Part shown: positions 5,204-31,457 of the stretch, piece by piece
Layout: the number at the start of each line of letters is the position of its first letter
Position numbering within the stretch: the first letter of the stretch is position 1
Source of the DNA: Cuniculiplasma divulgatum
Lineage (GTDB): Archaea > Thermoplasmatota > Thermoplasmata > Thermoplasmatales > Thermoplasmataceae
Length of the DNA stretch: 32,000 nt
Assembly: GCF_900083515.1 (NCBI RefSeq)
Contig: NZ_LT671858.1
Location: 630,001 to 662,000 of the forward strand
Reading direction: 5' to 3'
Made by a program: the position numbers and the translations under genes
Notes under the pieces: model-generated
Databases searched by the model: none
What the model was told of the DNA's origin: nothing
Seen by the model: only the letters and a program-made list of their open reading frames with translations

Positions 5204-6751
5204 TCACACCAGCCCCTTTATGAAATCTCTATTCTTTTCAGGTGAGGTGGCCTTTTCTCTCAGCATTTTTGATTCCTTCATCAATGGCAGTATATCTATA
5301 TCACCACCACCCTCTCGTGTTTCCCTTCTCCTGACCTTTATTATTACAGGAAATCTGACGAATTCCCCAACAAGTACAGCCTCTCCCGTATTCAGTGAAG
5401 GAAGGTCATTTATGATTGATTCACTAACACTCTCGCAGGATTCCTCAATTGCCTTCTGATCCATAGGATTGGTAACACGCAGAATTATTTGCGAGTTGCA
5501 CTGGCTCAACACATCCTGATCTATCTTTCCGGGCCTCTGGGTGATCACAACAAGAAATGTTCCAAATTTTCTTCCTTCTGCTGCTATTTTCTTAATCAGT
5601 AGGGGTAATTTTCCAACTGTCTCTCTCCCAACAAAATTATGTGCCTCTTCTATGAAGAAAAAGACGGGATACCTGAAATTTCCTGATGTTTTCTGGTCGT
5701 ATATCTCATCCAGAACCTTCAGGCAGAAATATGATATTATATCCTGATCAAGACCTGAAAGATCCAGAATGGAAAGCTGGCCAGGTCTCAGGTAAGATTC
5801 GACTGGTGTTGTAACATCGGTAAATATATCCTTTACAGCCTTGAGCAGGGCTATTCTCCCAGCAATCTTTGATTTATCCTGGAGAGGCATGGATTCATAG
5901 GCTCGCATGAAATCCTCAAAATTTCCCTTTCCCTTAATATTGGAATATAGACGCCTGACAATCTCCCTCATGTTTGTCCACTGCTCATCGATCCTCATTA
6001 TGTTGAACAGATCATCCTCCTCAAGATCCTGAAATCTCAGTGAGAATCGTTCAGTTAGGGAATTGAGTTCAGTTCCATACCGGCCTGTGCTCATTGGTGT
6101 TTTGAACACCTTCGTTATATTAGCCATGGATTTGCTCGCCTTCATCAGCGAATAGTCCGCATGTGGATCTAATACGACTATGGTCGCTCCAGCTTTTGCA
6201 AGTTCCTCTATAAGAACGGCAGCCGTATTACTTTTTCCTGCACCCGTTTGTGCCATAATTGCAACATGCCTTCTCATTCCATTGATGGATATCCCTGTTC
6301 TCACATTATCATAATCTGTAAGTGATCCAAGTTCAAGATTTCCATCCTCACTGTAACCGAAGAGTGTCTTCATCTCATTCTCTGTCGATCGCCTTACTGG
6401 TGTTCCGGGTCTTATGAGTTCTCTGTTGCTTTTCAGAACTCTTCCATCATCAGTTATTGATCCAACTGTTCTTGCCCTTGCAACATCAACTATCTCTCTT
6501 ATTTTGGTGCTGTTCAATTTCTTAACGGTCTCAAAATCTATACTCTGTCCAATGAGATCACTGAACGAAAGAAGCTTTTCAACTCTCCCTATAATGCTTC
6601 TCCCCTGCTGCACCACTGTTATATACTCCCACCTTTTGAGCACTGCTTCTGGACTGATCACGAACTGAAAATACTCGCTTTCACTCTGTCCTGTCACGTA
6701 TCCTATATCAAAATCTGATTCTTGCACGTCTTTCACCCCTTGTTTCAACAT
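5204..6751 (-). CDS. herA: HerA bipolar DNA helicase/translocase (FtsK-HerA superfamily ATPase)
   Basis: Walker A AQTGAGKSNT, Walker B FFFIEEAHNF, C-terminal ITQRPGKID. Sits between nurA and mre11. The start may be internal (GTG), because the listed ATG overlaps the nurA end by 44 nt. Confidence 0.92.
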   Translation of the reverse strand: MLKQGVKDVQESDFDIGYVTGQSESEYFQFVISPEAVLKRWEYITVVQQGRSIIGRVEKLLSFSDLIGQSIDFETVKKLNSTKIREIVDVARARTVGSITDDGRVLKSNRELIRPGTPVRRSTENEMKTLFGYSEDGNLELGSLTDYDNVRTGISINGMRRHVAIMAQTGAGKSNTAAVLIEELAKAGATIVVLDPHADYSLMKASKSMANITKVFKTPMSTGRYGTELNSLTERFSLRFQDLEEDDLFNIMRIDEQWTNMREIVRRLYSNIKGKGNFEDFMRAYESMPLQDKSKIAGRIALLKAVKDIFTDVTTPVESYLRPGQLSILDLSGLDQDIISYFCLKVLDEIYDQKTSGNFRYPVFFFIEEAHNFVGRETVGKLPLLIKKIAAEGRKFGTFLVVITQRPGKIDQDVLSQCNSQIILRVTNPMDQKAIEESCESVSESIINDLPSLNTGEAVLVGEFVRFPVIIKVRRRETREGGGDIDILPLMKESKMLREKATSPEKNRDFIKGLV

Positions 6752-10372: not shown

Positions 10373-11372
10373 GTGTGTTGCATAATTCCTCCTGCATAGT
10401 GAAATACAGAGGAACGATTTGCTGTTATGACAAATCAACAAATCACTGCTGCCGGTAATAGAAGCACAAGAAGGCACTGGATCGGTTCAGACAGAAGGTT
10501 TGACAGGTATTACATATCTCGTGTGAATAAAATTGAAGATCTCATTGATCCATCAATTCTCATGGATTGGAAGACATTCCTTATAAGAGAACAATGAGGG
10601 TAAGAGAGGACATCCTTCCAGAACACCCAGTGCATTCATAACATTTCTTGTCAAATTAAGGGCAATGTACAGCATTCCCTTCAGATCACATGTGGGAATT
10701 GCCAGAATATTTGCAAGGACCACCGGAATCTGTTTAGTGTGTTATACAAGCATATTCAGAAGAATCAGGAAGATCGTGCCAATTCTTCCTCTCAAAGATA
10801 CCTGTGGAGAGCCGTGGGCTGAATAGATTCCACAGGATTCAAGATAACCATAAGGGGTGATTTCCTGGAAAGAAAATGGAACAGAACAAGAAGAGGATGG
10901 TCAAAGCTTCATGCTGTAATATCAATACATGATTTATCTGTACTGTCATTTGCAATAACAGATGAGCATGTGCATGATGCAAAGAGTGGAAAGGAGTTGC
11001 TGAAGCCTGTAATGGAAAGGATCAAAAGGATATTCGCAGACAGGGGTTATGATTCAAAGGCAATATTCAATGAATTCGGTTCCAACACTGTAATACCTGA
11101 TAGAAAGAACGCATTAACCAGGAGCAGGGGATCACCTTCAAGATCAAAAATAGTCAGTCAGATTAAAAGGACATCAGAGAAGGAATAGAAAAAATTTATT
11201 GATTACGGAAAGAGATGGAATGTGGAGATATATTTCTCAGGATTGAAGAGAACCATGGAAGAAATAATCAAGGCCAATAGGCCAGACTACATTGCACAGG
11301 AGATTGCCTTAAAGGTGCAGTATTATAACATCCTCAGGGAGATAACACAAGCATATTAAATTGTGCAACAAA
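10373..11372 (+). mobile_element. Decayed IS5-like insertion sequence (about 1 kb) with imperfect terminal inverted repeats
   Basis: Left end GTGTGTTGCATAA (10373-10385). The right end TTGTGCAACAAAT (11360-11372) matches its reverse complement at 10 of 13 positions. The interior encodes a broken DDE transposase. Confidence 0.75.
10427..11358 (+). pseudogene. DDE transposase (DDE_Tnp_1 / IS5-like) pseudogene
   Basis: Readable pieces are MTNQQITAAG...LIREQ* and then ...SIFRRIRKIVPILPLKD in another frame. A further piece reads IDSTGFKITIRGDFLERKWNRTRRGWSKLHAVISIHD...ADRGYDSKAIFNEFG...SEKE*KKFIDYGKRWNVEIYFSGLKR...REITQAY. The DSTG, DRGYD and RWNVE(x)YF motifs are present. The frame is interrupted by TGA (10820), TAG (about 11186) and at least one frameshift. 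Listed ORF 10970-11188 is only a fragment of this pseudogene. Confidence 0.72.
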
Positions 11373-11641
11373 TAGTATAACGAAGACACTAAATCTGGTC
11401 AATTTTACTCTGAGAAATTAATTGGTGCTAATATATTAACTGAAAGTAAAGTAAGTCCAAACAGCTATTTTATTAAGAATCTAGTTAGAGTAAATCCAGA
11501 TAAGTTGCTCGGTATAGTATTAAAGAAAGTTTTTGAATATGAACAGAAGAAAAATATGAAGTCTTTTACTGATACATATTAATATAATATTTTATTTATA
11601 TTCTCACTCTATTAGATTAATAATTTTGAAAGATAGTGGTT

Positions 11642-12028
11642 TTAGTCATAAACCCAGGAAGGAGGAATCAAATAATAGTGACCTGTAATTTTCTTAATTT
11701 CCTTTTCTGATCTTACTATATTTGTTAATGCATAAATTATACCAATTAAAGAGATTAAGATTTCAATAAATTCTGCATACCCTATAGCACCTGTCGATCT
11801 CAATTCTAAATCGGTAAGAACAAAATATACAATGAGCATAACCATTATTGAGAGAGATTTGGTTATGGCAATATTAGTAAATCCGAACAACGACCTTCTC
11901 ATAGAAAATTTCTTAATAGAACTCTTCTTATATGATTGTTTTTCCTGTCTACTATAATAAACAATTACTCCGAAAAGTAATAAAACTAGTATAAGGGTAA
12001 ATACAGCATTAAGATCAACATTACTCAT
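11642..12028 (-). CDS. Small multi-TM membrane protein, paralog of 12788-13150 (candidate partner/immunity-like protein of the orphan module)
   Basis: Three hydrophobic segments. The C-terminal tail IVRSEKEIKKITGHYYLIPPSWVYD closely parallels IVKTEKQFKRYSGHYSIKPPEGFYD of the other copy. It holds the same position downstream of a homologous C-terminal module. Confidence 0.55.
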   Translation of the reverse strand: MSNVDLNAVFTLILVLLLFGVIVYYSRQEKQSYKKSSIKKFSMRRSLFGFTNIAITKSLSIMVMLIVYFVLTDLELRSTGAIGYAEFIEILISLIGIIYALTNIVRSEKEIKKITGHYYLIPPSWVYD

Positions 12029-12153
12029 ATTAATTCACCATTGCTTTTCATATATTTTAATTTATCACGTTTTTACACATATCTCCTTCCTCTTGGAGTC
12101 TATTATTGGAATTGATCCGTAGATCATACCTTTTGTCCATTTTCATGAACATA

Positions 12154-12600
12154 TCACCCGAATATTAAATATACAGGACTGGATAAACTTGCACTATAAG
12201 TTTCTCCTTCCTTACCCAAGTTTCCTGTAAGTGTTGTATTAAACAGAGTAAATCCCACGTTTTATGTGAAGTGATCAACCTGTTCAACCTGCGATCCTTT
12301 TTCATTTATGGAAGTGCATACGATTTGGTTAAATGCGTTTAAAATTAAATAACATCCATAGTTGAAATATCCATATGGCTCATTTGGGGCCTTGGATGTA
12401 GCCCTGTCACAGCATTCAAAGTGACCATTACAATTCAAATTATTGGTAATTATTGTTTTATCAGGATTGCACACGTATTCTTCAACTGCTACACCAACTG
12501 ATATGGCAAACAAGATCACAGGAAGATAATTTGTAGATTCAGTTGCACAGGATATTGCTAGGGGTGTATAATAAAAATAGGTACCTGAGGACTTATCACA
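12154..12600 (-). pseudogene. Orphan, diverged copy of the C-terminal module of the 545-aa protein, with an in-frame TAA
   Basis: The frame is open from 12600 and reads ...YYTPLAISCATESTNYLPVILFAISVGVAVEEYVCNPD...ECCDRATSKAPNEPYGYFNYGCY...VDHFT*NVGFTLFNTTLTGNLGKEGETYSASLSSPVYLIFG*. This is collinear with residues from about 390 to the end of the 545-aa protein (CDYTPLEY...NPDHP...TCCQNAFDKAPNIPDPYFYYGCY...MDHFTYGEKFVLINTTLTGNVCEERETYSGSFTSPAYLLFG*). TAA at 12262-12264 replaces the Tyr codon. There is no N-terminal part and no ATG. Confidence 0.65.
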
Positions 12601-12787
12601 TTATACCGCATTCTTATAATATACAGATTCTCCTGAATTACATATCTTTTTTGTATCATTTGATCTTAGAAACTTCTGATCACTAAACTATTACTTCTCT
12701 TTCAATTCTTTCCATCAATATAAAGCGAAAAAAGGAATAAATTAAAAGAAGGCCATCTTAACCTTCACATGATATCAACTCAACTAA

Positions 12788-13150
12788 CTAATCATAAAAT
12801 CCCTCTGGAGGTTTAATGGAATAGTGACCGCTATATCTTTTGAATTGTTTCTCTGTTTTTACGATCTGCCTAATAAGATTTAAAATCAGGATTATTAGAA
12901 TGAATAGGATAAAATAGTCATATACTGCGAGATGAAGTAATTGTAATGCAATGTATACCCACGTTATGAGACTCCCTACAATGATACCTACAACTATATG
13001 TGTTATGCTATAGGAAAATACAATTTTTTTTCGGAGTTTGTTCTCTAAATCCGTTTCGGAATGAATTTTGCGGATCAGCCAGGAATTAAATAATAATTCT
13101 GAAGGTAGGATGAATATTAGAAGTTCGTCAAAATTGAACATGTTAATCAC
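12788..13150 (-). CDS. Small multi-TM membrane protein tightly coupled to the 545-aa gene (candidate immunity-like/partner protein)
   Basis: GTG at 13150 overlaps the upstream TGA (GTGA), or alternatively ATG at 13141 lies 5 nt after that stop. Two to three hydrophobic helices. Conserved tail SGHYSIKPPEGFYD is shared with 11642-12028. Confidence 0.6.
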   Translation of the reverse strand: MINMFNFDELLIFILPSELLFNSWLIRKIHSETDLENKLRKKIVFSYSITHIVVGIIVGSLITWVYIALQLLHLAVYDYFILFILIILILNLIRQIVKTEKQFKRYSGHYSIKPPEGFYD

Positions 13151-14784
13151 CCAAACAGCAGATACGCTGGACTGGTAAAAGAACCAGAATAGGTTTCTCT
13201 TTCTTCACATACATTTCCTGTCAATGTTGTATTAATCAGCACAAATTTTTCTCCATAGGTGAAATGATCCATAGTCGACGGATCATTATATCCTACTGAC
13301 AAATTAAACCTTTCGCTAAACATATTTGAGGGTTGATAGCATCCATAATAGAAATAAGGATCTGGTATATTGGGTGCTTTATCAAATGCATTTTGGCAGC
13401 AGGTTAATTTCTGATCATTATTAACATTGTTTAATATTACAGGATGATCTGGATTGCCAAAATATTCGCCCAGAGCTATGGCAATGTTTACTGAGACTTC
13501 AGGGGCAACAGTAATCAATGTAACAAAAGATATTCCGTCGGTTAATACAGTTAATGAACCAAATATTAAAGCTGCTGCCAAACCTGCAACTAAATATTCC
13601 AGTGGAGTGTAATCACAAGTGGTTGATACACACGATGCTTGAAGATTTTGAAAATAGACTGACTGGCTAACACCTTTGCTGTTCCCGGAATATTCAAAGG
13701 AGTAGCATCTCTTATTCACACCCATCACATTTTTCGGAGATATCATGCTCTGGTAAAGATATACTCTGTCGGAATCACTCCTCAATATTATTCCTCCAGA
13801 AATTCCAGCGATTACCTTTCCTGTTGATGCATCAATAACCTTACCCTGTCCTGGAAACTCCTGTAAATCTGGTAATTCATATCCAGTATTGAAATTTACG
13901 TATTCGTTAAAAGAGTGGCCAAGATGATCCTGACATGTCCATTCTGATGTCCCAGGATATTGGTATGCAATTTCAAACCCACTGAAGCAACCTATATTGT
14001 TAACAGTTGTGCTGAAACACTTATTTTCGCATTGATATGCGTTTGAGGTTCCTAAAAGAATATCATTACAATTTTTGGTTACCTCAAAGTAGCCCTCTTT
14101 AACTGGCCCATTACTAGTATCAGAAGTTACAGTGTAAGATATTTTTACATGTCCATCTGATGAACCATTGGCAAAGCATGTGGATGATGGCTGGCTTATG
14201 TCCAGATTGGAGAGAGTTGGAGGATAGGTTGTAGTGGCTGTAGATCCTCCACCTCCCCCACTTCCACCACCACCTCCACCACTTTTGTGGATAGGTCTTC
14301 CCTGAGAGATTGTTGGTTCTATATTAGGATCAATGGTGTATGTTTCGTGAGCACTCAATTTTACGGGACCAAATGAAAGAATTAACGCATCATATCCATT
14401 CATCTTCTTTATCTCTCCCATGTGAAAGATATTTGAATCACATATCCAGTTTATGTTAAGTCCACCCATTTTAATGCTGGAATCATTCTGATCTAATATG
14501 AAATCATTTTGATTCAATGAATGAACAGAATTACCGTCGTTACCTGAAATTTTAAAGTTATTGGAATTTGGTAATACAACTGTGAAATCTACAATGTATA
14601 CTGCACTTGCATTGATCATATTCTGGAATGCAACTGAAGAACTCATTCCATAACTGTCGAAGAAGAATGCATCTACAGCCTTCGTATGGTTCCCACTTCT
14701 TATTAGATCTGCAGATGTACATTTACCGTTTTGAATTTCTTTAGAATGATATGAATTGAAATTCACCACAGACACATTTCCCAT
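13147..14784 (-). CDS. Large Cys-rich putative surface protein with Gly/Thr linker and C-terminal TM region; no recognisable family
   Basis: 545-aa ORF with good coding character. The linker is KSGGGGGGSGGGGGSTATTTYPPTL. The middle domain has many Cys. A hydrophobic stretch LVAGLAAALIFGSLTVLTDGISFVTLITVAP is followed by a Cys-containing tail. There is no N-terminal signal sequence of its own. Confidence 0.7.
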   Translation of the reverse strand: MGNVSVVNFNSYHSKEIQNGKCTSADLIRSGNHTKAVDAFFFDSYGMSSSVAFQNMINASAVYIVDFTVVLPNSNNFKISGNDGNSVHSLNQNDFILDQNDSSIKMGGLNINWICDSNIFHMGEIKKMNGYDALILSFGPVKLSAHETYTIDPNIEPTISQGRPIHKSGGGGGGSGGGGGSTATTTYPPTLSNLDISQPSSTCFANGSSDGHVKISYTVTSDTSNGPVKEGYFEVTKNCNDILLGTSNAYQCENKCFSTTVNNIGCFSGFEIAYQYPGTSEWTCQDHLGHSFNEYVNFNTGYELPDLQEFPGQGKVIDASTGKVIAGISGGIILRSDSDRVYLYQSMISPKNVMGVNKRCYSFEYSGNSKGVSQSVYFQNLQASCVSTTCDYTPLEYLVAGLAAALIFGSLTVLTDGISFVTLITVAPEVSVNIAIALGEYFGNPDHPVILNNVNNDQKLTCCQNAFDKAPNIPDPYFYYGCYQPSNMFSERFNLSVGYNDPSTMDHFTYGEKFVLINTTLTGNVCEERETYSGSFTSPAYLLFG

Positions 14785-14834
14785 GGCTGACGAATTGGAA
14801 ACATAAGGTGATGCAATTTTATCTGACTGTGTGC

Positions 14835-15110
14835 CTATTTTAAAATTTCATACTGAACAGGATACTTAAAGGAACCAAAGGATATGATGGGCTGACTTCC
14901 CACAAAACAGACAGATTCACCACACTTTGAATAAAGGGCTTCAGGGACATTGCTGTTTACATTTGATACTGAATTAGAGTTCTGAGACGAATTGTTGAAA
15001 GTGATTACCGTAAAACCTATGGAAAAAATCATTATTAGAGAAAGGAAAACAACTGTTATTTTGCCTATACTTTTTCTTGCCTCTTTATTTATGTTAAGTT
15101 TCACTTCCAC
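14835..15110 (-). CDS. Signal-anchor leader ORF (N-terminal TM + Ser/Asn-rich spacer), possibly the detached N-terminus of the 545-aa protein
   Basis: MEVKLNINKEARKSIGKITVVFLSLIMIFSIGFTVITF, then NNSSQNSNSVSNVNSN. Ends at TAG (14835-14837) immediately after T TTA AAA. The 545-aa frame is already open from 14847. Confidence 0.45.
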   Translation of the reverse strand: MEVKLNINKEARKSIGKITVVFLSLIMIFSIGFTVITFNNSSQNSNSVSNVNSNVPEALYSKCGESVCFVGSQPIISFGSFKYPVQYEILK

Positions 15111-15158
15111 TAAAAAATATAAATCGCAATTATTTTTATATCTTGTGGATACTCAAAT

Positions 15159-15793
15159 TGTGTTGCATAAACCATTTAATAATTTTTCCTGAAAATATAA
15201 TGGATGCTGTTTGTGAAATTCAACAAACCAAATGATCATGGAAAAGATACGGTCACTGTACAATAGTTAAGTGTTAAAAGCCATGAGACGCATTCCAGTT
15301 CTTAATGATATTGAAGTTCACATGTATGATCTGAAGAATTATAACAGGAAGAAGAATGAAAGATCGTTTATCATTCCAGACAGGATCATTGAATTTATTG
15401 CAGAATCAGATCAGTGTTCAATGCATTATTCAGGTCACTGGAATCGTATCTGATAGTATTTGTATATGGCAGAGATTCCAGAAATATATTCTATATTTTG
15501 AGCAATAATAGCATAGATACAATTACTTCACTTATGAAGAATCTGAATTCGATGTCAAGAAATTTCACAACCTGAGGAAGAACGGATAGGAAGATCAGGG
15601 AACCTGGGTTAGATGAATGAAGATGTTTTGAGTAATATGTGAAAAGATGGACAGTTGAAACAGACATTTTAAATCCTAAAAGAATCATGAAAGAAATCAT
15701 CAAAGCAAGAAAAAAGATTACATGATTCAGGAAGTTTGGCTGAAGAAGCTCTATTACAACACTATGAAGGATGATAGATTTTTATGCAACACA
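15159..15793 (+). mobile_element. Non-autonomous (MITE-like / internally decayed) derivative of the same IS family
   Basis: Perfect 13-bp terminal inverted repeat: TGTGTTGCATAAA (15159-15171) and TTTATGCAACACA (15781-15793), matching the left end of the IS at 10373. The subterminal sequence TGCTGTT..TGA.AA.TCAACAAA lies at the same 46-nt offset from the terminus as in the IS. No intact transposase. Confidence 0.68.
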
Positions 15794-15824
15794 GTTGGAA
15801 AATAGAATAAATATGTGAGGCTAT

Positions 15825-16769
15825 ATGTTTAAGAATGAAAACGAATTTTATAATTATGGTGTTTTTATGGACGAAGATCAGGTAAAAAAACAGGAGGCAA
15901 TAGTAAGAAATGTTTTGTACAAGAATCTAATGGAAGCATATATTCCCTTTCCGATGGACAGAAAAATTTCCACCCAATGGGCTGAACAGATGAACATTCC
16001 AAGAGGTGGGAAAGTCATAATCTACACGTCATTCATGTATCAAATGGCAACCATTTTTAAGTCATATGAAAAATATATCCCTACTTTCGGTTCACTTGGA
16101 ACTTCAAGAATAGTTGCATCAATCGGTTCAAAACTGATCAGACCAAAGAAAGAGGATGTGGTAAGAGCAGATAGCATACTGAAGAATATTTACAGAATGA
16201 TTTCAAAAAACGTTGAAAATGTAGGATATCTCTATGAGGATGAACCATACAGTGGTTCTCTCCTTCTGGAACTAGGGTTTATCGATGAGTTCAGGGAATA
16301 TGGACTGAAGGTAGAATCTTTCTTAAAACAGAAGGGTGTGGAATCCATAATCACTGTTGATCCACATACAACCAACACACTGAATAACCTGAAAAGGTAT
16401 ATTGGCTTTGATATACCATTTACTTCATACCTTAAAATCATAAGAAGTGGAAATGGAAAGGGATCATTTGTCCTCCATGACTCATGTCTTTACTCTCGTT
16501 TTCTCGATATGTATGATAGTGTAAGAGTTCTACTAAAAGATTCTGGGGTAGAACTGAAGGAAGATCCCGTTGTGACAGGAAAGGGTAGTAGTTTATGCTG
16601 TGGAGCACCAATGGGTCCCCTAAGTGATCATCTCAGCAATGAGATGGCGAAATCAAGGGCAGAAGATCTAAAGAAGATCAGTGAAAACATACTGGTGGCA
16701 TGTCCACTATGTTATGCCAATCTCTCGGAGTTTGCAAATGTGAAGGATATTGCAGAGGTGATAGCATGA
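15825..16769 (+). CDS. Cysteine-rich (CCG-domain) Fe-S oxidoreductase subunit, LutA/GlpC-like
   Basis: Two CCG-type Cys clusters (HDSCLYSRF ... SSLCCGAPMGP ... ACPLCYANL). Stop overlaps the next gene start (ATGA at 16766-16769). Confidence 0.72.
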   Translation: MFKNENEFYNYGVFMDEDQVKKQEAIVRNVLYKNLMEAYIPFPMDRKISTQWAEQMNIPRGGKVIIYTSFMYQMATIFKSYEKYIPTFGSLGTSRIVASIGSKLIRPKKEDVVRADSILKNIYRMISKNVENVGYLYEDEPYSGSLLLELGFIDEFREYGLKVESFLKQKGVESIITVDPHTTNTLNNLKRYIGFDIPFTSYLKIIRSGNGKGSFVLHDSCLYSRFLDMYDSVRVLLKDSGVELKEDPVVTGKGSSLCCGAPMGPLSDHLSNEMAKSRAEDLKKISENILVACPLCYANLSEFANVKDIAEVIA

Positions 16770-24946: not shown

Positions 24947-25021
24947 GCTCTGATGGTGTAGCCAGGCCAAGCATACCGGCCTTTCAAGCCGGCGACTCGG
25001 GTCCAAATCCCGGTCAGAGCA
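24947..25021 (+). tRNA. tRNA-Glu (anticodon TTC); integration target
   Basis: Acceptor GCTCTGA/TCAGAGC, anticodon stem CCGGC/GCCGG with loop CTTTCAA, T arm TCGGG-TCCAAAT-CCCGG, discriminator A. Confidence 0.9.
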
Positions 25022-25022
25022 T
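25011..25022 (+). repeat. att core, tRNA-proximal copy (attL/attR)
   Basis: CGGTCAGAGCAT, the last 11 nt of tRNA-Glu plus 1 nt. Identical to 31446-31457. Confidence 0.72.
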
Positions 25023-25513
25023 ACAATCATTAGGTATAGTTTACGCCAATTAAGGTTAAAGTTGGTATATAAAGAATAATTAAATAAGGTCATTAATATA
25101 TTTGTAAACGCTGATCTGTGGTTAATTTTATTTTTTTATTTAGGTTATTTTTTTACTTCTTATAGTGTTAGAGATATAAGAGATCATTTCAGACCCATGC
25201 CATTTATGACACTAGTACATGATAAAGTCAGAATATTGCCTAATATACTATAGAAAACGATAAGAAACCTTACAGAAATAATTACTTCGTATAGTATACT
25301 GATCTACCAGAATGTATGTTAGAGAATTACTTAATATAGATATAGGAAAGTCATGCAGATTTCCTTACAGACTATTACGATTATTATATAGCACTAATTT
25401 AAAAACGATTTAAGGATAGTCCTTTTTGGTCATGGTAAAATTATATCACAGACCTGTTGGAGAAGCCTTCTACCTATAGCATTGATAGGTCTATCTTTTA
25501 GGATCAGATAAAG

Positions 25514-25681
25514 TTAGTTTCTAATGCTGATTTGTTCGATTGCTTTCTTATAGACTTCTTTATGAACGTATTTGTAGTGTGAGATGGATTTTATTTCTTT
25601 GTTACAGATGGTACAATAGAATCCTGACCTTATATCGCCTGAGAGGACATGCAGACGCCTGTACTGGAAATTCTTTCCCAT
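25514..25681 (-). CDS. Small zinc-finger protein (55 aa, unlisted), C2H2-like
   Basis: MGKNFQYRRLHVLSGDIRSGFYCTICNKEIKSISHYKYVHKEVYKKAIEQISIRN, with spacing CxxC-x8-H-x4-H. Its ATG overlaps the upstream stop (TAATG). Confidence 0.5.
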   Translation of the reverse strand: MGKNFQYRRLHVLSGDIRSGFYCTICNKEIKSISHYKYVHKEVYKKAIEQISIRN

Positions 25682-25959
25682 TACAGACCCCTTTCTGAAA
25701 AATCGCCCGATGGTTCTGGATGCTTGTCAGATTTTTCAATGATCTTCTTTGCATTTTTTATAGAATCGTCTTCGGATTTTTTTATTTGTTTTTCGTACCT
25801 TTCTTCTGGATCATTAAACCCAATTTTCTTTATTTTCCTGCAATAGCTTCTATGAAATGTGCCTGACCTGTCCCTGTATGATTCCACGTATTCGTAGCCC
25901 AGTGGACAGCGTCCCTGTTCATATGTTTCTGAGTATTTCTTAAAAACCAAGATTTTCAC
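25681..25959 (-). CDS. Element-encoded hypothetical protein (92 aa)
   Basis: ORF in the coupled minus-strand module with a GTG start overlapping the upstream gene. K/E-rich C-terminal half. Confidence 0.5.
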   Translation of the reverse strand: MKILVFKKYSETYEQGRCPLGYEYVESYRDRSGTFHRSYCRKIKKIGFNDPEERYEKQIKKSEDDSIKNAKKIIEKSDKHPEPSGDFSERGL

Positions 25960-26281
25960 CTACCTTCAATTGTTCCAGATCAGTAGGATCTGGTTCCCTT
26001 CCCCGATCTTTTGCGTACTGAATTTCAAATCTTAATGACTTCATAACATGGTAGTTGTGTATCATTCTGTCTAGTATGATTTGATAAACTTCCCTGTCAA
26101 AGACCATGTTTGGTGGTAAGTAATAGTCTATTGCCTTTTGTGGAATATATTTCCTTGCAAATCTTATAGCATTACTATTGTATAAGTCGATGTCATTCAT
26201 GCAACTTATTACTATTAATTCCTTAAAGTCCTTTTGTTCCTGACTAAGTTTCCTATCAATATTATCTATACCTATGTTCAT
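25940..26281 (-). CDS. Element-encoded hypothetical protein (113 aa)
   Basis: ATG lies 1 nt after the NTPase stop (TAAAATG). No recognisable motif. Confidence 0.55.
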   Translation of the reverse strand: MNIGIDNIDRKLSQEQKDFKELIVISCMNDIDLYNSNAIRFARKYIPQKAIDYYLPPNMVFDREVYQIILDRMIHNYHVMKSLRFEIQYAKDRGREPDPTDLEQLKVGENLGF

Positions 26282-26282
26282 T

Positions 26283-27410
26283 TTACACCCCCTTATTTTG
26301 TACCAAATTCCTTAAAGAATTTGGATTTTTACCCCTTCTATCATCGGTTCTATCTTCCGTGCTTTCTTCAGTGCTAGTATGCTTATCCTTTTTGATTAAA
26401 GTATTTTGAAGGTCATCTAACTGTCGCATGTTGTGTATCCTTCTTTTTCTTTCATAGTCTTCTATTAGAGATGGTCTTGGTAAAGGAAAGTAGACGCTTC
26501 TAATAATGGTCTTTCCCTTAGTGAATGGTATAAGTTGGATATCTTTGCCATCGTCTGTAAGGACTGGAATATATGGACTGAATTCGCCCTGTCTTTGATC
26601 TTCTGTGTGGTCGAAGATGATGTCAATCATTAACCTGATGGACTTATCTAAGAAGTTTATGTTTGGTAGTGAGAAAATACTACAGTGTTGCAAGTACCTG
26701 ATGGATTGGATGACCTTACCTAATGCTTTGCTTTCTTTGGTCATGCTATCCCGATTTCCTGAGGTAATGCCTGCTTCGTCCATAATCACGGTATGTCCTG
26801 CAGGTAAGGTCTTTACTGCTTCAATAAAATCTTCGATGGAATAGACCATGCTTGCGAGGTCATAACCTGTTTGCATATCTGGAGTAAGGTAATCTGCTAC
26901 AGATAAAGACCCATAGGATTTGCCCCCGCCGACTTTTCCAGAGAAGAGAATGACCAAATTTCTATTTTCCCTTAGACGCCTACGGAAGAGGTCATAAACC
27001 AATTGCCTTCCATCGTAGTCATATGTAAATGAATAAACTTCCCTTTTGATAGGTTCTGGTCTTTCGTCTGTCCTGGTCAGACCTAAATCATATGCTAAAT
27101 TTTCCAATAATTCCTTACGTTGCTTTGCTTCTTCCGTGTTCATTTCCCAATGATTCAGATATGGATCACCGTAGTTAAAATTAAGATTTTTCACATTGGA
27201 ATCATAGGTATTTAGAATGTCTTTGAAGCCCCTGGACTGTGCCCGTGCCATCTGTTCAAAGATAGCCATTTCAGGAAACTGACCTTTTGTAAAGCTTCCA
27301 TTGATCCTTAGTTCGTATGAGAATTCTTCATTCATTTTTATGTACTGCTGGAAGATGACTGAGTTAATCGGAATACGATGCAAATCAGCTTCATTACTGG
27401 ATATGTCCAT
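26283..27410 (-). CDS. P-loop NTPase (Zot/assembly- or replication-type ATPase of mobile elements)
   Basis: Walker A LFSGKVGGGKSYGS and Walker B HTVIMDEAGI, followed by SIRYLQHCSIFSLPNINFLDKSIRLMID. This resembles the post-Walker-B region of Zot-like NTPases. Confidence 0.8.
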   Translation of the reverse strand: MDISSNEADLHRIPINSVIFQQYIKMNEEFSYELRINGSFTKGQFPEMAIFEQMARAQSRGFKDILNTYDSNVKNLNFNYGDPYLNHWEMNTEEAKQRKELLENLAYDLGLTRTDERPEPIKREVYSFTYDYDGRQLVYDLFRRRLRENRNLVILFSGKVGGGKSYGSLSVADYLTPDMQTGYDLASMVYSIEDFIEAVKTLPAGHTVIMDEAGITSGNRDSMTKESKALGKVIQSIRYLQHCSIFSLPNINFLDKSIRLMIDIIFDHTEDQRQGEFSPYIPVLTDDGKDIQLIPFTKGKTIIRSVYFPLPRPSLIEDYERKRRIHNMRQLDDLQNTLIKKDKHTSTEESTEDRTDDRRGKNPNSLRNLVQNKGV

Positions 27411-27471
27411 ATAATTACATGTAGTTTTAAATTTTAAACCTTTCGTACAATATTAACTGAGGATGTAGTAA

Positions 27472-27531
27472 TTTACCGAATCTTTCCGAAACATTACCGA
27501 AAATATGCCGTAAAATCCCGATTCCTTCCGA
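27472..27531. promoter_or_regulatory. Array of six helically phased T(T/A)CCGAAA-type iterons upstream of the NTPase operon
   Basis: CCG(A/T) cores begin at 27475, 27485, 27496, 27507, 27517 and 27527, giving spacings of 10, 11, 11, 10 and 10 bp. Further inverted copies (TCGG/CCGA) lie at 27584, 27642, 27656 and 27706, plus a TTTTGAT x3 run at 27588-27607. Confidence 0.65.
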
Positions 27532-27761
27532 AAAATATTTTAAAAAAACCCATTAAGAAATATATTGCACATACACGCGAGGATCGGATTTTTGATTTTT
27601 GATTTTTCAGATTGAGATTGTTCTTTGGCCTGGATATCAATCCGATGTATCCTTTCCGATTTAGTAGTGTTATTTTTTCCTGATTAGTTAGGTTCTTTCG
27701 ATTTATCGGATATACGATCTACTTATCATGGTGTTTGGTTTATGGTATTCTTATTTTCCAT

Positions 27762-29648
27762 TCAGACCTTTATTGTTTTGTAGTAATGCCTGATTAGTTC
27801 CCCTGCATAGTCTGTTTGTTTCTGTACCATACTAAATGGTATAACAAATACGTTTGAATCTTTCATACTATAGTAACGGTCTATTGTTTCTGATGTAACT
27901 ACAGTCATACAATGGTCTGTGACTTCAGAATACTTATAATGGAAAGGAGAGACGTCTTTATTGTTTTCGTTATAAATGTTTAGATGTTTAACGTACTTTG
28001 CTGTTATAGGATCTTCTAATATATCATAGTCTTCTTTGTACCTACAAAAACTTTCTAAATTTTCCTGGACACGTTTCTGAAATTCTTCTTTCCATGCTTC
28101 TTTGTGTTCTTCCCATACCATTCTGTTCAGCAGGTTGATGTCGTCTTCAGGATCTGGAAAATCAGGATCGATTGGTGGTGGTCTGTCTTCCTGCCCTGCA
28201 AAGACCTTCACAACGTATATTCTTTCCATTGGTATTCGTGCGTTACATTTTCTGCAGTAGAATTGAGGTTTTTCCTTCTTATAATGCCATATAAAATTTT
28301 TGGAATTGCTAAGGATTCCCCAACTACGCATGACCATGCTTCTACCTTTTTTTGACATTTTCTTTAACGATTTACTATAGTCTATTTTGTCTTTTATTTC
28401 ACTGATTCTAGATTTTACTTTGCGTCTGAGGATGGTAAACATTTTACCTTTTTCTGTGGTTAAAAATTTTTGATAATTCAAACTGTTGGAGAAGTTGATG
28501 ATGGAGATTGGTAGAGGATCGGAGTCAAAATTACTTAATCCGTTAGACAGGATAAATGTCCCATCTTCTTCGCCATCATGCAGATCGAAGAGATGGTATT
28601 TTGAACCGTATTTTAAGTCCAGATCAATACGATCCTTATAGACCATTACGCCCACATGATCAAGGATGTATTGAATGGTCATCCTAACGTTTTTAACAGG
28701 TTCGACACGACCATTTTTATAATGAAGGTTTTTAATTATGATCCCTTCATTGATAGTTAGTTCCTTTTGTCTGTCAGCCATAATATGCCCGAATCCGACA
28801 AAATGATAGTGAGAGCCATCTATACAATCTTCTGAGTAATGTTTGTCCCCATTCCTTCGGTAAGGATGCAGATAAATATAGCCCCCGAAACAACCCACTT
28901 CCCTGAGGATATTTATAATTTTTATGTTATTGTCTTTAACGTCTTGGTCAGTGTCAAAAACCATGTTTGGAATTGAGACAACCACATGATAAATCCCAAG
29001 TGGTGTGTGTGTTTTGGTAGCATAAATTAGAGTATTAATGAGATTTTTGCGCTGAATTTTTCCCATATTTTTATCAACCAGACTGTAAAAGACATTGCTT
29101 CTTCGATGATTAGTTTGGTGTTTGCTGAAAAAGAATTTTAGAAGTTCCTTTAAATTATTACCAGATTCTAGATTTATGAGTTTTGTTGTAAAGGACTGAA
29201 ATTTCAATAACTTATCCGATTGAGATTCTATAGTCTTTTTGTAGACGCCAGCAGGTTCTGGATAACCTAAGTCATTGAGGATCAGGTTACCGAGAGAGTC
29301 ACGTTTATGATTGCAGAGTTCACAGAGAATCGAGTTACAATTCAATCTATTAGTTTGATGGATATGCGCAGAATGAGTTAGATCGCCATACTGATCAGTA
29401 AGATCAGGAAGGGTGGATGTATGAGCATAAAATTTGTTTTCGCCATTATTATCATGAAGAAACATGCCACAATCATTTTTTTTAGGTTCTGTAAAAGGAA
29501 GAATGAGATAGATTTTCTTTGGTTGTTTGACTTCTTTTTTCTTCCCATTTTTGTTGACTAATTCTACATTAAAGGTTTCCGTTATAACTGGATTTTCAGA
29601 TGGATCAGAATGATCAGAAGGTTTATTTACTGTACTTCGATTTATCAT
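27762..29648 (-). CDS. Large element protein, putative replication initiator (HUH-like motif; function tentative)
   Basis: 628-aa ORF. YHVVVSIP, then GGYIYLHPYRR...GSHYHFVGFGH (His-hydrophobic-His followed by hydrophobics), then TIQYILDHVG about 45 aa later. Cys pairs CELCNHK and CRKCNARIP. CDS confidence is high; functional call confidence is about 0.35. Confidence 0.7.
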   Translation of the reverse strand: MINRSTVNKPSDHSDPSENPVITETFNVELVNKNGKKKEVKQPKKIYLILPFTEPKKNDCGMFLHDNNGENKFYAHTSTLPDLTDQYGDLTHSAHIHQTNRLNCNSILCELCNHKRDSLGNLILNDLGYPEPAGVYKKTIESQSDKLLKFQSFTTKLINLESGNNLKELLKFFFSKHQTNHRRSNVFYSLVDKNMGKIQRKNLINTLIYATKTHTPLGIYHVVVSIPNMVFDTDQDVKDNNIKIINILREVGCFGGYIYLHPYRRNGDKHYSEDCIDGSHYHFVGFGHIMADRQKELTINEGIIIKNLHYKNGRVEPVKNVRMTIQYILDHVGVMVYKDRIDLDLKYGSKYHLFDLHDGEEDGTFILSNGLSNFDSDPLPISIINFSNSLNYQKFLTTEKGKMFTILRRKVKSRISEIKDKIDYSKSLKKMSKKGRSMVMRSWGILSNSKNFIWHYKKEKPQFYCRKCNARIPMERIYVVKVFAGQEDRPPPIDPDFPDPEDDINLLNRMVWEEHKEAWKEEFQKRVQENLESFCRYKEDYDILEDPITAKYVKHLNIYNENNKDVSPFHYKYSEVTDHCMTVVTSETIDRYYSMKDSNVFVIPFSMVQKQTDYAGELIRHYYKTIKV

Positions 29649-29758
29649 TGTTGTTAGTTACCCTGGTCTGAGACTTGTGGTTAGGTTTCAGACTTTTATT
29701 TTTTTCTTTATCATCGTCAAACAGATAAGCGAGAATACGATTTAATTCTTTCATGAGT

Positions 29759-29932
29759 TCAGCGTGTTGCATTTTCTACACCGTTAACTTTCATTGGTTT
29801 TACAATGATTTTGCCATTTTCGCCGATGAATATATCGACCGCCATGGTTTCATTTATACGATGCTGTTTTACGTATTCAAACGGAAGTCGCACGTAATAA
29901 GTGCTGTTATTCCTGGTTACATGAGATTTCAT
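29759..29932 (-). CDS. AbrB/SpoVT/MazE-type swapped-hairpin DNA-binding protein (57 aa, unlisted)
   Basis: MKSHVTRNNSTYYVRLPFEYVKQHRINETMAVDIFIGENGKIIVKPMKVNGVENATR. The pattern (Y)VRLP.E..K...I..G..V.I....GKIIVKP is the classic AbrB-fold signature. It is the first gene of the operon leading into the 628-aa gene. Confidence 0.6.
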   Translation of the reverse strand: MKSHVTRNNSTYYVRLPFEYVKQHRINETMAVDIFIGENGKIIVKPMKVNGVENATR

Positions 29933-30043
29933 GATAATATACTAATAATATCTTATTATTAAATACTATCGTATAGATCGTTCGGAGAGCCAGTAATTTA
30001 CGGTAAAAAAGATAGATAGACGGTATTTAAAAATATCGGTAAT

Positions 30044-31399
30044 TTATTTTTTGATCCTTTTCTTAACGTCTTCTAATTTCCCATTCTTTTCTAATTCTAC
30101 TAGTAGAGAAGCGAGGAGATCCAACTTAGAATCGTCAGGAAGATTATTCATGGTAGTCTTAAGTTCAGGACTTAATAGATCAGATTCCTGTAAGGTTTCC
30201 ATGACCTTTTCCCTTTCTTCTTCAATCTTTACAAAGTCTTCCTGCTTCATTGGTGATCCACAGTTACTACAGAAGCGTGCTGACCCTGTATTGATTACGT
30301 GACACCTTGGACATTTCCTATTAACCTTAGATAATGGTTTCTTTAATTCTTCGTCTGTTATTTCGATTCCCTGAGCCTTTAGAATTGCAGTTATCTGACC
30401 TGTTTTGTCTAAGTGAGTGTAGTTGTCAGCCATTTTATTGGAAGCCCAGCCCATTTGCTTTACAAAGACCTGTAACGGTGTTTCTACTGCTAAGCGAGTA
30501 GCACAACTATGCCGGAATAAATGCGGTGAAATTTGCTTGGTTATTCCTGCCCTGTTCACAGATTTCCTTATCAATGCCCTAAGGTCTTCATAGGTTAGTG
30601 ATTCCCCTAAATTTTCCTTACCAATGCCTACAAACAGATGGTTGTTTTGGTCAAATCTATCCTTCTGGATATCCTTCAGGTATTCTATATATTGAGGAAT
30701 GATTACTACGCTGTCGCCTGTAAGGACAACGCTTCTTTGCCTGTAGTTCTTTGATCCTTCAGAAATGTTTAGGACTGCGTAAAGACCGTCTGTGCTTTTA
30801 CTAAAGTCCTTAATCTTTAGCTTAAGTAATTCGCTTGCCCTGATTCCTGAATCCCACAGAAGTGAGATTATGGATTTATCCCTAATATTCTTACACGCCT
30901 TTAGGATTGCCTGTAGTTCTTCATAAGAAATCATTTGGTCAGGTCTTTTGTATCTGCTTCCTATTTTTTCACTGTGTATGTCATTCCAGAATTCTGGAAA
31001 GTCTTCCCTTTCTTCCTTAGGTAATTCTGCGTTGTATTTTTTGAAGCAGAATTTAACAAATTTCTTCATAGTCTTCTTAAGATCGGAGATAGTAGCAGAT
31101 GAGTAGTGAGTTCCCCTTATGGTTATTTTGTCCCTTAATTTTCCTATGACCATTAGCACGTCTTTTTCTTTAGGATTTATTCGACCCTTAGAGTCCAGGA
31201 TTTTATCCCCGAAGCTTTCGCCCAGTATCAGAAGTCTTTCGTAATAGTAGTATTCCCTGTGTTGTTTTATACCTGAGCCTTCCCTAAGAGTAAGGACAAA
31301 TTCAAAAATTTTATCCTTCAGTTCCTTTGGAAGTCCTGAATTTTCCAATCTTTTTTTGACGCTTTCCACATTTTTACTGACATTATATATTTCAGCCAT
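30044..31399 (-). CDS. int: Tyrosine recombinase/integrase with C-terminal zinc ribbon and acidic tail
   Basis: Catalytic contexts GIRASELLKLK (Arg), HLFRHSCATRL (His-x-x-Arg), GWASNKMADNYTHL (Trp/His, Tyr). The extra C-terminal CPRCHVINTGSARFCSNCG is followed by an E/D/K-rich tail. The gene is intact, so this is not an SSV-type integrase split by integration. Confidence 0.9.
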   Translation of the reverse strand: MAEIYNVSKNVESVKKRLENSGLPKELKDKIFEFVLTLREGSGIKQHREYYYYERLLILGESFGDKILDSKGRINPKEKDVLMVIGKLRDKITIRGTHYSSATISDLKKTMKKFVKFCFKKYNAELPKEEREDFPEFWNDIHSEKIGSRYKRPDQMISYEELQAILKACKNIRDKSIISLLWDSGIRASELLKLKIKDFSKSTDGLYAVLNISEGSKNYRQRSVVLTGDSVVIIPQYIEYLKDIQKDRFDQNNHLFVGIGKENLGESLTYEDLRALIRKSVNRAGITKQISPHLFRHSCATRLAVETPLQVFVKQMGWASNKMADNYTHLDKTGQITAILKAQGIEITDEELKKPLSKVNRKCPRCHVINTGSARFCSNCGSPMKQEDFVKIEEEREKVMETLQESDLLSPELKTTMNNLPDDSKLDLLASLLVELEKNGKLEDVKKRIKK

Positions 31400-31445
31400 G
31401 ATAGAGAAATTACGTAGCGTAATATATACCTATCGTTTTGAATTT

Positions 31446-31457
31446 CGGTCAGAGCAT
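31446..31457 (+). repeat. att core, distal copy (displaced tRNA 3' fragment)
   Basis: CGGTCAGAGCAT. The upstream AAT also matches with a 2-nt gap of mismatch (GAATTTCGG vs AAATCCCGG). Confidence 0.72.

Follow-up and report, generated by a model that had tools for sequence, protein, structure and literature searches.

An integrated element at a tRNA-Glu gene

We investigated a stretch of 32,000 nt from Cuniculiplasma divulgatum (contig NZ_LT671858.1, positions 630,001 to 662,000; hereafter the window), in which a tRNA-Glu(UUC) gene is followed by an element of 6,435 bp (25023-31457) bounded by copies of the 12-bp sequence CGGTCAGAGCAT. Exactly two copies of this 12-mer are present in the window, with 0 expected according to 100 dinucleotide-preserving shuffles. 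Between them we found eight plausible open reading frames (ORFs) of 55, 92, 113, 375, 628, 49, 57 and 451 aa, among them genes for a Xer-like tyrosine integrase, a putative replication protein and a P-loop ATPase (Table 1). The remainder of the window is ordinary chromosome, with genes for Rad50-Mre11-HerA-NurA, peptidases, an acyl-CoA dehydrogenase and Amt. A first-pass annotation, made from the sequence alone, had described an att duplication at the tRNA-Glu gene, an intact integrase gene adjoining the distal att site, cargo genes on one strand only and a non-coding AT-rich stretch of ~490 bp beside the tRNA. These points were borne out: the 12-bp repeat is exact and empty sites exist (see below), the integrase ORF has its full 451 aa, eight of eight ORFs lie on the minus strand, and the G+C content is 28.3% in 25023-25513, compared to 37.4% in the host part of the window.

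The tRNA-Glu(UUC) gene is the integration target and is intact once the element has integrated. The element entered the 3' end of this gene via the 12-bp core, by site-specific recombination, and has its own intact Xer-like integrase gene close to the distal core. Of the features of tRNA-targeting tyrosine-recombinase elements of the pNOB8 type, a recombinase, direct att repeats with one copy overlapping the tRNA 3' end, an empty site and an unsplit integrase gene were found. Apart from its Pfam assignment, the integrase matches the XerA model NF040815 (1.9e-28, under that model's cut-off) as well as the XerA structure 5hxy in the PDB (1.7e-11), and carries the motifs RASELL, HLFRHS and W...Y. 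Its start codon is located 46 bp from the attR core, and the gene is not cut by integration.

Joining the two ends in silico gives the attP junction ...TTTGAATTT-CGGTCAGAGCAT-ACAATCATTAGG..., and in such an excised circle the AT-rich region would be positioned upstream of attP and the integrase gene. The arms of an imperfect inverted repeat lie just inside both element ends and would bracket the core in attP, which makes them a candidate integrase-binding site. The first 37 nt past the attL core, including most of the left arm, are identical in two diverged variants of the element (L009 and L003, see below). The right arm overlaps a TATA-like box, suggesting that integrase binding and autoregulation may be combined at this end. 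Within the AT-rich region we noticed a stretch of ~190 bp (25154-25341) that gives no blast alignment to either variant, with both sides aligning at 84-96%; judged from these alignments it appears to be a replacement hot spot of the non-coding region. Rfam scans yielded no RNA family other than the tRNA. In a scan for sigma-70 promoters and terminators, archaeal promoter types being outside its coverage, counts were not above those of shuffled controls.

Empty sites and transfer between species

The state of the integration site was determined in contigs encoding exactly the Amt protein of the window. Five independent contigs carry an empty site with breakpoints exactly at the core edges (L014, L015, L016, L018 and L023, of which L016 belongs to the metagenome-assembled genome GCA_027367115.1). 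Compared with a window from which the element has been deleted precisely, leaving one core copy, their sequences show 98.5-100% identity; in L015 (JGI 3300050385) the window minus 25023-31457 is matched at 100% over 12,238 bp, with a single core. The search for empty sites that the first-pass annotation had recommended thus yielded attB in all five. In another four contigs (L017, L019, L021 and L022) the site is occupied, and their sequence matches that of the window at 100%. An empty-site contig (L018) and a contig with attR plus integrase gene (L043) come from one and the same JGI sample, 3300052694, so that both states of the site coexist in a single community. The Logan contigs L009, L003 and L044 stop exactly 18 nt beyond a core, as would be expected from a graph branch at the core edge with k=31 if attB coexists with attL or attR. 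Genomes that are otherwise identical differ at present in having or lacking the element.

A hypothetical protein of Cuniculiplasma divulgatum has the same sequence as the 628-aa protein (100% identity). In Cuniculiplasma divulgatum PM4 (LT719092; L006) the element is found at the same tRNA-Glu gene with only 3 single-nucleotide polymorphisms in 6,435 bp (99.95% identity), whereas the flanking genes are only 74-81% identical to those of the window. Next to attR PM4 has an additional acetyltransferase gene, and similarity ends 3 bp past the attR core; on the tRNA side identity continues for ~43 bp ahead of the tRNA gene, in keeping with a conserved tRNA promoter. An element of 99.95% identity in hosts with ~80% identical flanks implies recent horizontal transfer, and we therefore conclude that the element crossed recently between two Cuniculiplasma-like species. 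Polymorphism in one sample and near-identity across two hosts uphold the integrated mobile element that the first-pass annotation had proposed at this tRNA. More diverged variants occupy the same att site, namely L009 (96% identical) and L003, whose replication-type protein is 55% identical at the protein level. A further difference between the two hosts is a gene of the IS605 OrfB/TnpB type in PM4 (L006 18760-19539), located between the acyl-CoA dehydrogenase gene and a tRNA-Val-homologous region. This part of PM4 is syntenic to the tRNA-Val neighbourhood of the window, and a blast comparison found no DNA similar to the gene in the window.

Coding content and small ORFs

Table 1. Coordinates of the element, its target and its features in the window, with the evidence for each.
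Feature	Position	Strand	Evidence or remark
Host tRNA-Glu(UUC)	24947-25021	+	ARAGORN; Rfam RF00005, 55.4 bits
attL core CGGTCAGAGCAT	25011-25022	+	Final 11 nt of the tRNA plus 1 nt
AT-rich non-coding region	25023-25513		28.3% GC, no convincing ORF
Inverted repeat, left arm	25031-25053		Imperfect, 23 nt, 78% complementary (repeat search)
55-aa protein, CxxC...HxxxxH motif	25514-25681	-	Pfam zf-C2H2_jaz, E 0.0014
92-aa protein	25681-25959	-	blastp homologues in L001, L002, L003, L027, L033
113-aa protein	25940-26281	-	Homologues after the ATPase in L027, L029, L003
P-loop ATPase, B251/'DnaA-like' AAA+ family, 375 aa	26283-27410	-	PHROG 5484, tblastn, hhalign
Control/origin-like intergenic region	27411-27761		Upstream of the ATPase gene
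Putative replication initiator, 628 aa	27762-29648	-	Conserved residues, AlphaFold2 model, context
49-aa ORF	29623-29772	-	Overlaps both neighbours; 59% identity in L003; called in all copies
AbrB/SpoVT-MazE-type DNA-binding protein, 57 aa	29759-29932	-	PF04014, 1.9e-7
Xer-like tyrosine integrase, 451 aa, C-terminal zinc ribbon	30044-31399	-	PF00589, 4.6e-27
Inverted repeat, right arm	31410-31432		Overlaps TATA-like box ~27 nt upstream of the integrase ATG
attR core CGGTCAGAGCAT	31446-31457	+	Exact repeat of the attL core

The AbrB-like regulator named in the first-pass annotation is the 57-aa protein, which is 95% identical in L003 and is a probable transcription regulator of the rep operon. 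At the other end of the gene array, the stop codon of the ATPase gene (26283-26285) is one base away from the start codon of the 113-aa ORF (26279-26281). A relationship of the 113-aa protein to A153/A154 of SSV1 was considered and rejected (hhalign probability 0.2%). The 92-aa ORF overlaps both its neighbours and is the most widely conserved small ORF in the element family described below. The three small coupled ORFs of the first-pass annotation are present; its C2H2-like zinc finger in the 55-aa ORF does not go beyond weak matches below the family cut-off.

Outside the element a 545-aa ORF (window 13147-14784, minus strand) without a Pfam family was noted, which contains a CCACCTCCACCA-type repeat at 14245-14282. 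The G+C content around it is low, with ~30-33% at 11000-13500 and ~32-33% at 14500-16000.

A spindle-virus-type ATPase

The 375-aa protein, noted previously as a P-loop NTPase, has both a Walker A (GKVGGGKS) and a Walker B motif (VIMDEAG), preceded by an N-terminal helical domain and followed by a conserved C-terminal tail, RGKNPNSLRNL. The residues G158xxxxGKS165 and D211-E212 are invariant in 28 of 28 sequences. Two leads, a match to PHROG 5484 ('DnaA-like replication initiation protein', 1e-6) and a tblastn match to the lemon-shaped Haloferax virus LSV-48N (3e-7), were confirmed by profile comparison, in which the LSV-48N ATPase was aligned by hhalign over 192 columns (98.9%, E 1.9e-17) and B251 of SSV1 over 170 columns that span nearly the whole of B251 (80.9%, E 1.3e-5). 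The protein is a homologue of the B251-type AAA+ ATPases that spindle-shaped archaeal viruses encode. In fuselloviruses B251 belongs to the absolute core of genes, and the satellite pSSVx has it as well (PMC9608457).

We identified 54 full-length relatives of the ATPase with 43-94% identity, all from Thermoplasmatales-type sources (e.g. Acidiplasma, A-plasma). In single scans with the ATPase alignment, only two loci were hit in genome contigs and one in metagenome contigs. A search of PDB sequences with this alignment (A2) gave nothing or chance matches, and a tblastn search against plasmids gave no match. The Foldseek neighbours of the AlphaFold2 model (pLDDT 79.5) are generic ASCE proteins, namely RFC, Rad51, MutS, Twinkle, KaiC and Zot, and no hydrophobic segment was found in the ORF scan. 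A ParA-type partition ATPase acting with a centromere was rejected as a candidate, as K159 is not conserved and Foldseek returns RecA, AAA+, MutS and Zot rather than ParA/MinD.

The tail of the ATPase, RG(K/T)NPNSLKNL (residues 355-375, window 26283-26345), also forms the C-terminus of a 198-aa protein that takes the place of the ATPase in the relative L002 (2634-3230) and is otherwise unrelated to it (hhalign 82.6% over 21 residues). To judge from the two sequences, this shared tail looks like a short docking motif for a common partner. In L033 a 197-aa protein occupies the ATPase slot.

A family of elements with exchangeable replication genes

The element belongs to a family of elements of acidophilic Thermoplasmatales. 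All relatives examined (L001-L004, L024, L027, L029, L031/L037 and L033) are ~5-6.5 kb in size and share a layout of integrase, one to three small ORFs, one large replication gene, an intergenic region, the ATPase and two to three further small ORFs, which include a homologue of the 92-aa protein. Their integrase-like genes (~420-480 aa) are divergent, giving weak matches to PHROG 1 and no blast similarity to the integrase of the window, and in some relatives the ATPase slot holds an unrelated protein of ~198 aa instead.

The replication gene is exchangeable between family members. L024, with an ATPase 47% identical to that of the window, has a canonical HUH Rep (PF23343, 4.7e-9) with the motifs FLTLT, HIH and YLMKY, and L027, with an ATPase 92% identical, carries a D5_N/DUF5906/Pox_D5 primase-helicase in the same slot. 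In L029 we found a 735-aa P-loop protein at this position. The slot can therefore be filled by a member of the 628-aa family, by an HUH Rep or by a D5-type primase-helicase.

Different family elements were noted at the same host site in two samples (L031 4711-11837 and L037 4667-11803), one with a 638-aa and the other with a 565-aa Rep-like gene, each beside an oppositely oriented 428-aa gene similar in size to the integrase-like genes of the family. This suggests element replacement or a tandem arrangement. In L024, a Thermoplasmata metagenome-assembled genome, the related element adjoins a tRNA-Val gene. The only repeat of the 3' part of this tRNA is the 11-bp sequence CGACCGGATTT at 6106-6116 and 11729-11739, and this repeat falls inside the first codons of a 483-aa integrase-like ORF, a position that hints at an att site of the SSV type inside the integrase gene.

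The intergenic repeat region

Between the ATPase gene and the replication gene the region 27411-27761 contains, in gene orientation, a conserved block, three AAAAATC heptads (GATTTTT at 27587-27607), a TATA-like GCAATATAT at ~27557-27569 and an array of short repeats at 27472-27531. The array is made up of five TCGG and one ACGG in the order TCGG-TCGG-ACGG-TCGG-TCGG-TCGG with 10-11 bp spacing, and is located ~70 bp before the ATPase start. The same layout, with a TCGG or TCGA word phased at ~10-11 bp, is found ahead of the second module in L027, L029, L024, L003 and L002. The region aligns well with L027 despite the unrelated replication gene of the latter, and the repeats therefore belong to the ATPase module. 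Their role there may be that of operator, origin or packaging site, and they are not evidently a nick site of the replication protein; as they are conserved even beside a D5-type helicase, an origin of the 628-aa protein's own was rejected for them. The iteron array reported by the first-pass annotation is accordingly real, if short, but is linked to the ATPase and not to the Rep-like gene.

The putative 628-aa replication protein

In the 628-aa protein an HUH-like core is framed by a Cys/His zinc module at the N-terminus and a C-terminal part with a CxxC motif. Only 10 close clusters were found among 5.8 billion proteins; an exhaustive search with the family profile gave 139 matches, the remote ones aligning only to residues ~215-340. 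In an alignment of 66 sequences the residues H261, H280, H282, Y327 and H331 are invariant, and C104, C109, H221, S225, G252, G256, R264, G444 and C465 nearly so. In the AlphaFold2 model (pLDDT 82.5, pTM 0.79) strand 219-225 (YHxVxS) is followed by a helix, strand 253-265 with H261, strand 275-287 with the invariant H280-Y/F-H282, a helix, a strand and helix 321-329, which contains Y327, with H331 located at +4. This predicted order is that of Rep-class HUH domains. It includes a third His on the adjoining strand, which RepB of pMV158 has as well, and the conserved residue that Rep-class HUH enzymes have four positions after the Tyr.

A member of the same superfamily is present on a complete, circular plasmid of 11.6 kb from Halobacterium litoreum (NZ_CP089467, L039; hhalign 99.1%, E 8.5e-19), where it is the sole large ORF (51-1460). 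The annotation of this plasmid consists entirely of hypothetical proteins. A role of the 628-aa protein in replication is proposed because its slot is shared with known Reps and because of this plasmid homologue, and we consider it probable that the protein is an HUH-type rolling-circle initiator.

Several results weigh against this assignment, and the HUH-like label of the first-pass annotation is plausible from motifs and predicted topology, but no match in sequence or fold is significant. The protein has no sequence match in Pfam, PHROG, NCBIfam or the PDB, and Foldseek comparisons to HUH proteins gave E values of at least 0.14 in the PDB and at least 0.002 in BFVD. The matches to small domains, none of them significant, include RepB of pMV158 (8amu, 3dkx; E 0.14), ORF119 of the rudivirus SIRV1 (2x3g; E 0.17), microvirus initiators (E 0.05 in BFVD, where the best value was 0.002) and P2 gene A. 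When the family was compared by hhalign with the HUH Rep of L024 (PF23343), only the HxH motif was aligned (GPHFH/YPHIH), again not significantly. Nor could a family in Pfam, PHROG or NCBIfam be assigned to 50 remote members, and a cluster look-up of 10 remote members returned no names. Searches of PDB sequences with the single sequence and with the alignments A1 and A4 found nothing or chance matches such as coronavirus PLpro; a word-indexed profile search with A4 recovered the close family only, and tblastn against phages gave no match. Finally, no origin specific to the Rep was identified, the conserved intergenic repeats being those that accompany the ATPase module. All this would also suit another DNA-processing enzyme, such as a transposase- or relaxase-like nickase or a zinc-dependent nuclease, in which case replication would depend on the ATPase or on host factors, and one remote member indeed shows a weak match to the zinc domain of IS91 transposases. 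We nevertheless regard this alternative as unlikely: the slot in question is filled in sister elements by a D5 primase-helicase or a canonical HUH Rep, an autonomous circular plasmid has a homologue as its sole large ORF, and the protein resembles Rep-class HUH enzymes both in its conserved residues and in the order of these.

Two other enzyme classes were rejected, AEP primases owing to the lack of invariant acidic residues in the core, and Rep-Arvir, which has acidic metal ligands (PMC13107129), as no match to PF25227 was obtained in a Pfam scan at E <= 0.1. A 56-aa ORF (window 29378-29548, minus strand) lies in the +1 frame within the 628-aa gene and encodes two hydrophobic segments. It is probably a compositional artefact, although no other capsid-like hydrophobic ORF exists in the element; open hydrophobic stretches in the +1 frame are also found in L009, L003, L001 and L004, with dissimilar sequences.

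Nature of the element

The element is plasmid-like, integrative and recently mobile, and we interpret it as one of the pSSVx/pSSVi/SRCE kind; the explanation as a whole is given a probability of roughly 70%. According to this model the integrase would excise the element to a circle, and the circle would be replicated by the rolling-circle mode from the 628-aa protein, acting as a nicking initiator of zinc-finger plus HUH type with a putative metal site formed by H261, H280 and H282 and Y327 as the presumed nucleophile; the AbrB-like protein would regulate the replication step. As a satellite, the element might then be mobilised in particles of a spindle-shaped helper virus. A plasmid-type replication gene together with a spindle-virus ATPase, and no full morphogenesis module, is the combination looked for in such satellites, and it is the one found here. 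No capsid, membrane or conjugation gene is present among the ORFs of the element. Neither a hydrophobic alpha-helical major capsid protein as in Fuselloviridae nor the spike (VP4-like) and membrane (VP3-like) proteins of Pleolipoviridae were found, the only large proteins being the integrase, the Rep-like protein and the ATPase. Hydrophobic ORFs occur only antisense to larger genes or out of frame inside them and are not conserved in sequence, for which reason a hidden capsid gene was rejected. The ORF scan and the spindle-virus ATPase thus favour the minimal integrative plasmid or satellite-type element, free of capsid, spike and conjugation genes, that the first-pass annotation had envisaged. 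The profile and structure searches it had called for led to assignments for the ATPase, the AbrB-like protein and the integrase and to no significant match for the 628-aa protein.

The satellite reading is proposed because the element moves between species yet has no membrane, capsid or conjugation gene, and because comparable archaeal elements with this ATPase have all been shown or proposed to be satellites; satellite status would account for spread between species in the absence of any transfer genes. From these analogies a satellite of a spindle-shaped virus still to be found appears to be the single most likely lifestyle, a tentative assignment at somewhat less than even odds. A number of results speak against it. 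To our knowledge no spindle-shaped virus of Thermoplasmatales has been described, scans of IMG/VR with the alignments of the ATPase and of the Rep family found no relatives, and no larger virus-like element was seen among the ATPase-carrying contigs examined. Moreover, the B251-type ATPase may act in replication or in morphogenesis, and its presence is not proof of packaging. The search of contigs for circles and for the attP junction, as recommended by the first-pass annotation, found neither: contigs showed no terminal overlap, and integrase-bearing contigs had no such junction.

These points leave considerable room for an autonomous integrative plasmid that needs no helper virus, in which ATPase and repeats would form a replication or maintenance module with an origin-binding or DnaA-like role and which would spread between the wall-less hosts by cell fusion, vesicles or transformation. 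The label 'DnaA-like replication initiation protein' given to the ATPase family in PHROG and GenBank would agree with such a plasmid, as would the resemblance of the AT-rich heptads and phased short repeats beside the ATPase gene to an iteron-type origin, the persistence of the ATPase module whatever the large replication gene, and the failure to find a helper virus or capsid gene anywhere in the family. On the other hand, L027 with its full primase-helicase and L024 with its canonical Rep still keep the ATPase, which would be odd for a pure replication helper; a 99.95% identical copy in two species with ~80% identical flanks requires an efficient vehicle; and every documented small archaeal element with the ATPase and without capsid (pSSVx, SRCE, PL6) has been shown or proposed to be a satellite. 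We hold the autonomous plasmid to be quite possible and a close second to the satellite. A decayed spindle-shaped provirus that has lost its structural genes would likewise combine a virus-type ATPase and an integrase with the lack of a capsid gene, but all ORFs are intact, the compact layout recurs at ~5-6.5 kb in relatives with ATPase identities as low as 43% (range 43-94%), and precise excision, polymorphic sites and near-identity in two species are hardly the marks of a remnant, so that we consider this very improbable. As to a coincidental 12-bp repeat in ordinary conserved chromosome, nothing but the shortness of the repeat could be cited in its favour; it is refuted by the empty site in five contigs, whose breakpoints coincide exactly with the core, and by an identity of the element across species far above that of its flanks, and it retains practically no probability.

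Significance and comparison with known systems

Mobile elements of Thermoplasmatales are almost uncatalogued; in the genome papers on Cuniculiplasma that were consulted, nothing is listed beyond IslandViewer islands and the element goes unmentioned (PMC5155288, PMC12302457). For PM4, 92 CRISPR spacers have been reported. With a currently mobile, cleanly delimited element in the cultured strain C. divulgatum PM4, excision, replication and transfer become directly testable, and a self-integrating replicon at tRNA-Glu is a possible starting point for genetic tools in Thermoplasmatales. With the element, a large protein superfamily that lacks annotation is for the first time seen in context; it is probably a new branch of rolling-circle initiators, and the Halobacterium litoreum plasmid NZ_CP089467 is a possible experimental system for it. 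It also bears on the prevalence of archaeal virus satellites. It is conceivable, though doubtful, that the 628-aa family founds an archaea-wide superfamily of zinc-finger plus HUH-like initiators and that the elements are the first virus-satellite system of Thermoplasmatota. If this were true, spindle-shaped viruses infecting wall-less acidophiles would still await discovery, and a route of interspecies gene flow in acid mine drainage would be given.

The closest counterparts are the satellite plasmids pSSVx and pSSVi of Sulfolobus/Saccharolobus fuselloviruses, which at 5-6 kb likewise combine a plasmid-type replication gene and small DNA-binding regulators with the lack of a capsid gene, pSSVx in addition having a B251-type ATPase. 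pSSVi carries an integrase, which is of the SSV type, and inserts into a tRNA gene. Their hosts are Thermoproteota, whereas the host of the element belongs to Thermoplasmatota. The element joins integration and ATPase in one, its Xer-like integrase stays intact, and its replication protein is unrelated to those of pSSVx and pSSVi. pSSVx carries A154 together with B251 and spreads with SSV2 (PMC9608457), and its AbrB-like factor C68 appears in the reference list of that paper. The partner gene A154 is absent from the element, for which no helper virus is known. SRCEs and PL6 plasmids, which combine diverse Reps with the spindle-virus ATPase, have been proposed to be satellites (bioRxiv 10.1101/2025.02.15.638363). 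Like the element family, they couple replication proteins of unrelated families (rolling-circle Reps, primase-helicases) to the spindle-virus AAA+ ATPase, but they are reported to be circular episomes of haloarchaea and nanohaloarchaea, some with a capsid protein, whereas the members of the element family are integrated at tRNA genes, have integrases and no capsid protein, and reside in acidophilic hosts. The element adds acidophilic Thermoplasmatota, with an integrative form, to the Sulfolobales and haloarchaea in which the design of plasmid Rep plus spindle-virus ATPase had so far been known.

Regarding the putative replication protein, the HUH initiators compared (RepB of pMV158/PF01719, PF23343 ORF2-G2P, rudivirus ORF119 and Y2 transposases of the IS91 type) share with the 628-aa protein the His, the HxH motif, the Tyr helix with its +4 residue, the order beta-alpha-beta-beta-alpha-beta-alpha and the presence on plasmids or small mobile elements; an N-terminal zinc module is found in IS91-type enzymes as well. 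The 628-aa protein differs from them in that no match is significant, motif I reads YHxVxS and not uuTuT, the residue at Tyr +4 is His and not Tyr or Lys, and the protein is much larger, with extra domains that have no match. Rep-Arvir proteins (DUF7845/PF25227; SNJ2, PAV1, pRT1, pAMT11) are a recently recognised archaeal family, likewise of rolling-circle initiators on integrative viruses and plasmids, and in SNJ2 the adjacency of integrase and replication genes becomes important once the DNA is circular, but they belong to the TBP-like/Rep_trans fold class with its acidic metal ligands (PMC13107129). Among bacterial systems, pSAM2-type elements of actinomycetes resemble the element in integration at a tRNA 3' end and in having an integrase gene, a rolling-circle Rep and a single ATPase, the latter being a membrane-anchored FtsK/TraB translocase, whereas the ATPase of the element is B251-like and has no hydrophobic segment. 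In the literature searched, no description was found of an integrative Thermoplasmatota element that combines a B251-type ATPase and a Xer-like integrase with a member of a new Rep-like superfamily.

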